The notes: generated by a model from the letters alone, not told the origin. A DNA stretch of 64,000 nt from Chiloscyllium plagiosum (GCF_004010195.1 NC_057718.1:43222395-43286394), one strand, 5' to 3'; shown: positions 59,595 through 61,985, counted from the stretch's first letter. Translations and numbers: made by a program.

Positions 59595-59839
59595 ATTCAA
59601 TGCACATAGAAGATGTTGAGGCTGTTCAGAAGCTGCAAGATGTCTTGCACGAGGCCCTGCAGGACTATGAAGCTGGGCAGCATGGGGAAGATCCACGCCG
59701 TGCTGGTAAGCTACTGATGACTCTCCCTCTTCTCCGGCAGACCTCTACCAAAGCTGTGCAGCATTTCTACAACATCAAACTGGAAGGCAAAGTTCCCATG
59801 CACAAACTATTCTTGGAAATGCTGGAGGCCAAGGTCTGA
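59595..59839 (+). CDS. ESRRG: ESRRG last coding exon (LBD helices 9-12, AF-2): (D)[80 protein letters not shown]
   Basis: It contains the AF-2 motif [11 protein letters not shown]. The acceptor is gtatag ending 59594 and the stop TGA is at 59837-59839. Length is 245 nt. Confidence 0.97.
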
Positions 59840-61985
59840 CTAGAGGATCCTAGGCCTTCCCATGAAACCACACAGAATGGGTTAGGCCACAGCAAAGGGA
59901 AGAAACGTAGGAATTGAACCAGACAAAAGTTAACTGTAGTGTTTAATTGAAAAAAAAAGAACTGCACTGATATTTAGCAGTATGACTGTGAAGCAGCTTT
60001 CAACTTCTCATTCTTCTAGGATTTTTTCATGCAGATTTTGCTGTTGAACTTTTTAATGAGGTCTCTAAATGAAGAGAGAGAAGGAAGCCAGCCCTGCCAA
60101 AGGATGGGAATCCATAATGTGGATGCCATTGAACTAATAATAAAGAGAAATATCCCCATCAACAAAGGATTCAGACTGACAACTGTTTTACCTAGCAGTA
60201 CAGCGCATTGACTGAATGCAGTATTAGGTTCCATATGAACAGTCTGTAATTAGGCAACGGAGCAGCGTTGCATTGGCTGCTTCTTCTCATTGCATTTTTT
60301 CCACCTTAGATCAGTTACAGCCATTTAATTCCTTAATTGTTTTCAAGTCTTCCAGATATTTCTTAGGTTAGGAACTATGTCTATTTCAGGGAATAGTGAG
60401 CTTTACTCAGTCACGCAATACTGAAAATACTGCATTTATTTGCTGGCTGGAAAAACGATGGACAGTTATGAAGAACAAACAAAACTTTTTTTAAAACCTT
60501 TGTTGTTGATGTTGTTTATGGGTTTTTTGTACCAGCTTTACCACTACAGCCATTTTATTAATCTGTGAATTTATCTTAAGCAATAGTGAATGAGAAGGTG
60601 CATACTTTTTATGGATGCAATTTATGTTGAGTGCCAGTTCAGTCAAAATCCTCAACTTCTTTAACACACGGTAATACATAGCTTCAAGTTCATTATTGCA
60701 ATTAGATTACACCGTTATTAATAGGCTAGTTGATCTGACAATTGAATCCAACGCAACAAGATTATACACTAGCTTGCCCCAGTATACCTTGGAAATATGG
60801 TACTAATGTAAAATAATGTACTTTACAGGCATATTTATTAACCATTCAAAACATGACTGTTAAGGTGTAAATTTGATTTAGCATCTAATCAGATGTTTTT
60901 CCTCCCCCTTAAAAGCTACATTTGCTACATTTTAAAACAAATGAAGGCGCTAACCTGTACCAAGTACTCAAATGTCAGTATTAATAGCTGCTCCCTGTTG
61001 TACCATGTGACATCCTCTTCTGTGTACACTTATGTAATCAAAGATTGTGAGCCTAACCTGAGGTCATGTATTGGAAACAAAAAAAATGTTGTAGTTCAGC
61101 TTGCAATGTTTCATGTTTGCTGTGTTCTTCTAATTTTTAGTTGAATTCAAAGACTGTTGTCTTGTTCTTATTGTGGTGTTAGATTCTTGTGATTGTACGC
61201 ATTAGACACAGGGTAGAATTAGAGACAGTAATGGATGTAAAATTCCTCAGGAGATAGTGTATTCTATTCCTTACTGGTGATAAGATTGCTCCTATTAATA
61301 ATAAGAACAAATAGTTTAAGAATCAGAACAAATATCTCTTCCAACAATACACATTTAAATCATTAATTTAAAAAGGGATATTTTGTGTAACAGTTTATTG
61401 TAGAATAACAATGTATATCTTAGAAAAGAATTTGAATATTTCCAAACAATAGGTAAATGTCTAATTTTTAAATGCTGTAAATATAGCTATGTTCAAACAT
61501 CTCAAATGGTTGTTAAAACCAGCTTTGTGTCGTTACAAGTTTTTGGTGCAGACAAGTTTCCCAAACTACTGCTACATTGTGTGCTTTGAACAAAAAAAAA
61601 GAAAAAGACAAAAAGGTTGATGGTATGCATCAACCTTGTGCTATAAATACTGTGTATCATTAGCCGTACGAGACTATATAGTAGATTGTGGTTTCTCAGT
61701 AGAGAATTGACTGTACTGTGATTCTAGACTTTATTCATCATTAGCAGCTCATTCAGGTGGTCAATAACTTGAAGTTTATAGCTGTAATAGGGAACTAAGA
61801 AACTGGCACGACCCTTAAAAAAAAAATCCAACTCCTGGGAGTAAGGTGCTGATTTTGAGTAACAGGAGCTTAGCTCTGTGGAGTGCAAGGGAAGGATTTA
61901 AGGTTTATTTTGTTTATGCTTATGGTTAGAACCAGCAGCAAAATCTCATTTACCAGTGCTCAGAACAGCAAAATGAGATAGTTAA

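Follow-up and report, generated by a model that had tools for sequence, protein, structure and literature searches.

The UGA-CUAG stop context of ESRRG in Chiloscyllium plagiosum is probably incidental and leaky, at the start of a conserved 3′UTR

The ESRRG gene of Chiloscyllium plagiosum, which encodes ERRγ (NR3B3), ends in the sequence UGA-CUAG and stays open for 25 further codons. By analogy with human genes of the same context this stop plausibly works like a leaky UGA-CUAG stop, but in the sequence comparisons presented here the tail behind it is not conserved as a protein. The explanation that we consider probable is an incidental leaky stop context at the head of a 3′UTR conserved at the nucleotide level, with a tail that is not selected. 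ERRγ is a ligand-independent receptor.

The window, that is the whole stretch of 64,000 nt that was analysed (GCF_004010195.1 NC_057718.1:43222395-43286394), contains four ESRRG exons:

19327..19437, + strand: end of the DNA-binding domain and hinge, with a basic segment inside (tblastn with P0019; AG/GT boundaries)
23014..23175, + strand: start of the ligand-binding domain (tblastn with P0019; AG/GT boundaries)
56602..56871, + strand: middle of the ligand-binding domain (tblastn with P0019; AG/GT boundaries)
59595..59839, + strand: last exon, coding part, to helix 12/AF-2 and ...EAKV-stop (ERRγ identity 78/80)

The protein of the last exon matches solved ERRγ chains at 78/80 residues (158.8 bits) and scores lower against the paralogues (135.6 bits for ERRβ, 105 bits for ERRα), which bears out the gene identity proposed by an earlier sequence-only reading. 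Since this protein and solved ERRγ both terminate in ...EAKV, the TGA at 59837-59839 is the genuine end of the coding sequence. AG/GT boundaries at four exons, an intact chain to ...EAKV and 3′UTR elements in common with the ERRγ-identical protein P0015 mark the gene as an ESRRG orthologue. An AG at 59593-59594 directly precedes the last exon, at the end of which we take helix 12/AF-2 to lie. The 10-residue basic segment of the hinge exon is likely the receptor’s own NLS. All 91 sampled words of 59590-60500 are present in 16 of 24 listed public runs, eight of which (studies P2 and P3) were not flagged as a possible source, so that an assembly error is unlikely. Organisms B and C, with 1.00 and 0.94 of the sampled words, are too close to inform on conservation, and the word shares of runs X19 and X20 (0.28 and 0.18) were not used as evidence. 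Elsewhere in the introns, open frames at 32270-33109 (across a gap of N) and 7945-8718 are retroelement-like, with a reverse-transcriptase/endonuclease-like appearance.

The region around the stop (59834-59845) reads GTC-TGA-CTA-GAG, with GTC at 59834-59836, TGA at 59837-59839 and CTAG at 59840-59843, and the next in-frame TGA follows at 59915-59917, exactly as claimed before. The 75 nt between both stops encode LEDPRPSHETTQNGLGHSKGKKRRN, and the tail of a readthrough product would be X-LEDPRPSHETTQNGLGHSKGKKRRN. The elements are as follows:

59837..59843, + strand: UGA-CUAG stop context, last sense codon GUC (sequence reading)
59840..59914, + strand: 25-codon in-frame stretch, hydrophilic (GRAVY -2.1), net charge +3, 5/25 residues different in P0003
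59894..59911, + strand: basic cluster KGKKRR, retained by P0003 but not in this form by the five ERRγ-identical proteins
59915..59917, + strand: second in-frame stop TGA, W at the matching position of P0003

The heptamer TGACTAG occurs seven times in the window versus 8.9 expected. At least 25 open codons follow 333 of its 1389 plus-strand TGA triplets (24%); the 25-codon frame is therefore ordinary, and the earlier remark that such a stretch is not unusual was correct. At a real stop the motif is rare per gene (23 human genes), hence a genome scan meets one regularly. The basic cluster is uncommon, as K-[KR]-x-[KR] lies within the first 25 codons in only 8 of the 333 comparable open stretches (2.4%), but it was chosen after the fact. 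A sequence similar to a weak splice donor, AAG/GTCTGA (59831-59839), overlaps both the last codon and the stop; in primates, the F-domain forms of ERRβ are produced by a splice near this point that bypasses an intronic stop (PMC4978380).

The full UGA-CUAG motif and the rare basic cluster speak for a lineage-restricted, selected ERRγx, in which the basic 26-residue tail behind helix 12 would alter localisation or reduce the binding of coactivators. There are precedents for such effects: VDRx needs about 100-fold more ligand (PMC5868278), and in some assays ERRβ2 is localised differently owing to its spliced F domain (PMC4978380). We nevertheless regard a selected ERRγx as unlikely. The NLS-like role suggested for KGKKRR loses weight because a basic segment already exists in the hinge, where the NLS of the paralogue ERRβ is also located (PMC4978380), and a second NLS would probably be redundant. 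Further objections come from the relatives.

Frames beyond the stop were seen in predicted database proteins that were apparently translated with TGA as W. This reading is backed by P0003, which has W at 3/3 TGA codons of the window’s frame. Such proteins accounted for 1/3, 12/20 and 1/6 of the candidates in the individual protein searches, and an index-free protein search contained 14 of them among 150 listed of 270 matches. An internal W stands for TGG or TGA, so that some tail lengths are upper bounds. P0003 was also considered as a real extended protein and ruled out, since W at all three TGA codons betrays gene calling with TGA read as W. The proteins of this kind (some of P0003-P0044), which derive from vertebrate contigs, are artefacts that show post-stop frames and could pass for real readthrough isoforms. 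The group labels are our own: ‘amniote-type’ denotes identity to solved ERRγ chains and is used beside ‘teleost-type’. Paralogue labels rest on protein comparisons and the UTR element, not on a 77-column tree, in which P0003 and P0004 were joined (92/80) and the teleost groups were not resolved. Of the 10 loci found in a metagenome scan, six are last exons of vertebrate-type ERR genes for which DNA is available. A single metagenome assembly contributed L001-L004 and L006, each a different ERR last exon, which fits host DNA from a teleost-type fish whose paralogues are duplicated. The genome-contig search returned one bacterial match (L011), judged a chance hit, and the viral-contig search no match.

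P0003 differs from the window exon at 0/79 residues. It has the same frame, the same 25 codons, the second stop and KGKKRRN, and its tail begins L-E, which is compatible with CUA-G. A loss of CUAG or of the frame, which the earlier reading had named as refuting among elasmobranchs, was accordingly not seen at this close range; this is a point in favour of ERRγx and against an incidental context. Within the tail 5/25 residues differ (p=0.0006 against the invariant exon, as a protein-level proxy). All five changes (D-E, T-N, T-I, N-K and S-I) are single-base, and all except D-E are non-conservative. Beyond the second stop only 1/17 alignable codons differs, besides one short deletion in an A-run (p=0.37 versus the tail); the tail is thus no better kept than the codons past it. 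At about 8.5% change per non-synonymous site, the probability of no new stop is about 0.80 and that of an intact 7-residue basic end about 0.16, so the retention of frame and motif at the distance of P0003 is expected by chance. These values come from one informative close relative, compared as protein, and are compatible with a dN/dS <1.

Five proteins identical to solved ERRγ (P0004, P0005, P0008, P0012 and P0015) all start with W-L-K after the end of the exon. The second codon K implies A at +4, not G, which fits the human gene’s absence from the published UGA_CUAG table (0 matches for ESRRG; PMC5868278). Compared as DNA, the tails of P0004 and P0005 reach a score of 40 through shifts of 1 and 2 nt, where 25 shuffles gave a mean of 15.3 (sd 2.6) and at most 21.3, and those of P0005 and P0012 a score of 22 (null mean 12.5, sd 1.9, max 15.3) via a 1-nt shift. 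The tails of P0004 and P0008 shift frame after codon 37, while the comparison of P0004 with P0012 was not significant versus shuffles. By these alignments the ERRγ-identical tails are homologous as DNA and differ in frame and in length, which is 13, 25 or fewer, about 40-41, or 42 codons. A K-K-x-K, different from that of the window, lies further along the tail in P0008 and P0015, and none is found in P0004, P0005 and P0012.

Between the window and P0008 or P0015, DNA homology is significant only at UTR positions +86 to +170, and not at +1 to +75:

59925..60009, + strand: 3′UTR block with DNA-level homology to the tails of P0008 and P0015 after back-translation (scores 39 and 42; null about 16-17, sd 3)

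The homology to the ERRγ-identical proteins is thus stronger past the second stop than in the tail, the reverse of programmed readthrough, for which conservation falls after the second stop (bioRxiv 10.64898/2026.07.14.738498). P0004, P0005 and P0012 gave no score above their own shuffles against the window. A block at +14 to +24, read in three frames between the window and the ERRγ-identical proteins, failed its control, as 139-169 of 300 shuffles were as good; the argument on frames is therefore based on the comparisons of the tails with one another. The case for the first 25 nt after the stop as a single conserved element is weak, the near-stop alignments of the window with the ERRγ-identical proteins being not significant.

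In the teleost-type group closest to ERRγ, four sequences (L001, P0017, P0021 and P0023) are without CUA: the DNA of L001 reads TGA-GGAT followed by 9 open codons, and the three proteins start with E, G and G. A second ERRγ-like teleost group has L in 4/7 proteins and S in 3/7. The DNA of L002, TGA-TCAG, identifies its S codon as UCA, and because L alternates with S in this group, UUA is as likely as CUA for the L. Sequences of ERRβ type start with H or Q after the stop. The full stop context is not conserved throughout the ESRRG sequences compared, given these four teleost-type sequences and A at +4 in the five ERRγ-identical proteins. The functional 26-residue F-domain-like tail of the earlier proposal is not supported, in view of the divergence of P0003 (5/25 vs 0/79), the shifted frames of the ERRγ-identical proteins and the teleost-type sequences without CUA.

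The same comparisons bear on a different explanation, that the leak itself is selected and the tail sequence is not, with UGA-CUA-(G/A) kept from cartilaginous fishes to amniote-type ESRRG. Such a leak would shield an mRNA with a long 3′UTR from NMD or provide a small pool of AF-2-blunted receptor. In its support, L is the first residue past TGA in 6/6 tails of non-teleost ERRγ type, with the sequence beyond varying. Among 765 variants in MAPK10, CUAA was the only one to exceed CUAG (bioRxiv 10.64898/2026.07.14.738498), and readthrough inhibits NMD, depending on the distance to the mRNA end (PMC5360307), in which respect an ESRRG UTR of possibly about 2.8 kb is relevant. However, the L is read from protein and its CUA codon in the relatives is putative, with UUA as likely in the second teleost group and CUA lost in the four teleost-type ESRRG sequences. 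The word-index searches were moreover biased toward W-L (11/13, versus 2/14 in the index-free search). As the whole proximal UTR evolves slowly, three kept bases need no special cause, and 13-42 codons of readthrough would clear little of a long UTR. We consider this explanation improbable, although, if true, it would show, for a metabolic receptor that is constitutively active, that readthrough can be selected in the absence of coding conservation, would include human ESRRG, and would belong to cases to which PhyloCSF screens are blind.

The 3′UTR contains the following elements and candidate structures:

59824..59859: alternative hairpin enclosing the stop codon, + strand, -17.7 kcal/mol, z -1.36, not significant
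59853..59888: possible hairpin, + strand, +14 to +49 after the stop, -15.9 kcal/mol, competing with other folds
60058..60128: deeply conserved 3′UTR element, + strand, with 0-1 mismatches to P0015 over 14 codons’ worth, out of the stop’s frame
62593..62598: ATTAAA, + strand, candidate distal poly(A) signal, giving a UTR of about 2.8 kb if used
60139, 61986 and 63322: AATAAA, + strand, further candidate poly(A) hexamers

The element at 60058-60128 is non-coding, has no counterpart in Rfam and is weakly matched in the teleost-type locus L001 (1499-1539; 41 nt, 76%, E 0.24). The proximal candidate hexamer at 60139, 300 nt past the stop, could give a short-UTR isoform. The hairpin at +14 to +49 had a z of -3.0 in a hand-picked window and of -2.5 in a sliding scan, a value reached by 10/274 UTR windows. 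It is second-best by energy in the scan, its pair probabilities stay <0.5 in context, and one P0003 change (+39; one relative, protein-derived) falls within its stem. A longer stem from +9 had a z of -1.1 to -1.7, and the three candidate folds near the stop are mutually exclusive. No Rfam family reached the threshold, and two sub-threshold matches to bacterial sRNAs were judged to be chance. A structural stimulator resembling that of alphaviruses or of dfr may exist at the ESRRG stop but is not supported by these fold predictions. Further downstream, the most significant local fold of the 3′UTR scan lies at 61580-61660 (z -4 to -6 in 46- and 71-nt windows); it surrounds an A-rich run and may be compositional. 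The lowest-energy 46-nt UTR window is located at 60240-60285 (-17.3 kcal/mol, z -3.8).

How much such a context leaks can be judged from published reporter assays. In human cells, 17/17 newly tested UGA_CUAG contexts leaked at 1.3-6.7%, compared with 0.7% for a UGA-C control (PMC5868278), and UGA-CUA by itself gave about 1.5% readthrough (PMC4132726). From these values a low-level leak of ERRγ is plausible, and this part of the readthrough claim stands; a selected isoform does not follow from it. That flanks or cell type damp the motif to near background, leaving no meaningful readthrough in vivo, would agree with the lack of a strong stimulatory structure in our fold scan and with the wide variation among motif genes, given a value of 0.5% for AQP4 in one reporter set-up and the loss of readthrough with some -1 codons (bioRxiv 10.64898/2026.07.14.738498). 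The uniform result for the human contexts and the activity of UGA-CUA alone make us doubt this strongly. Val is furthermore the usual last residue in AQP4 and OPRK1, but encoded there by GUA, versus GUC here (PMC4132726).

The motif predicts a leak well and function poorly, the latter for about 6-7 of 23 human genes. UGA_CUAG at true stops occurs in 23 human genes versus 39 expected; PhyloCSF is positive in 4/23, and MDH1 and LDHB, which are functional despite a negative PhyloCSF, add a verified peroxisomal signal (PMC5868278). General non-adaptive readthrough has been described (PMC6550407), and data on natural-stop readthrough exist for about 18.8k human genes (PMC11387191). ESRRG was not found in the supplementary files searched for PMC5868278, PMC4207609, PMC11387191, PMC4359377, PMC10954755 and PMC12233894. 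A search of largely open-access literature found no description of ERRγ/ESRRG readthrough, in agreement with the earlier statement that no such isoform was known, and ESRRG UTR sequence strings had no match in literature text.

According to the explanation favoured here, an incidental leaky context, a near-cognate tRNA would out-compete eRF1 in roughly 1-5% of terminations, as extrapolated from human-cell assays. The product would be a trace of ERRγ with 26 extra hydrophilic, probably disordered residues, a presumed by-product not under selection. The bases after the ESRRG stop would belong to a slowly evolving UTR in which CUA-like starts persist in some lineages and indels can shift the frame freely; position +4 is G in the window, whereas the ERRγ-identical proteins have A. 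The best reading, by analogy, places ESRRG with the majority of human UGA_CUAG genes, which have a reporter leak and no coding signature. Against this reading, the L starts (6/6 in non-teleost sequences, 4/7 in the second teleost group) exceed the expectation for a random UTR, with the reservation that the searches were biased and L may be UUR. Moreover, MDH1 and LDHB are functional although their PhyloCSF is negative, and the conservation of VDRx is confined to Old World monkeys (PMC5868278).

Several known systems resemble ESRRG in part. Human UGA_CUAG genes with no coding signature, for example ATP10D, CDH23, DDX58, SIRPB1 and TMEM86B (PMC5868278), likewise have UGA-CUAG at the annotated stop, an expected leak of a few percent and no protein-level constraint. 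Those genes differ in being reporter-measured, whereas ESRRG is known from sequence, and a CUA-compatible start recurs in distant ESRRG orthologues. VDRx shares with it the nuclear receptor with UGA-CUAG right after the ligand-binding domain, a clade-limited conservation at most and frameshifts in distant species; for VDRx, however, readthrough was measured at 6.7%, ribosome footprints exist, an antibody detects the product and PhyloCSF in its clade exceeds that of 97.5% of UTRs (PMC5868278), whereas the single close ESRRG relative shows 20% tail residue divergence.

AQP4, MAPK10, OPRK1 and OPRL1 (PMC4132726) have the identical seven-base motif and extensions of similar length (13-34 residues). 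In these genes UGA-CUA is universal in vertebrates and the G nearly so, and the extension is protein-conserved with near-fixed length. ESRRG departs from this class in all three respects. Its UGA-CUA is not universal (TGA-GGAT in L001, E/G/G starts, A at +4), its extension varies from 9 to 42 codons with 1- and 2-nt shifts among P0004, P0005, P0008, P0012 and P0015, and its conservation profile, taken as a protein-level proxy only, is 5/25 in the tail against 0/79 in the exon and 1/17 downstream.

The tail of ESRRG ends in -RRN, which is not a PTS1. In this it is unlike MDH1x and LDHBx, which otherwise share with it the motif and a putative short signal ending an otherwise unconserved tail (PMC4207609, PMC5868278); the KKRR cluster of ESRRG is kept only in P0003 and absent in distant orthologues. 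The F domains of primate ERRβ2 and ERRβ-Δ10 are also lineage-restricted C-terminal extensions on an ERR ligand-binding domain, but they are products of alternative splicing that bypasses an intronic stop instead of readthrough, and comprise 67-75 residues (PMC4978380). Alphaviruses (PMC13517186) and Drosophila dfr (PMC13170385) combine UGA-CUA with a stable conserved 3′ stem-loop after a short spacer. As it stands, one more gene with an incidental leaky context matters little; judged by these analogies, ESRRG probably joins the known genes whose UGA-CUAG stop leaks slightly and yields no product under selection.
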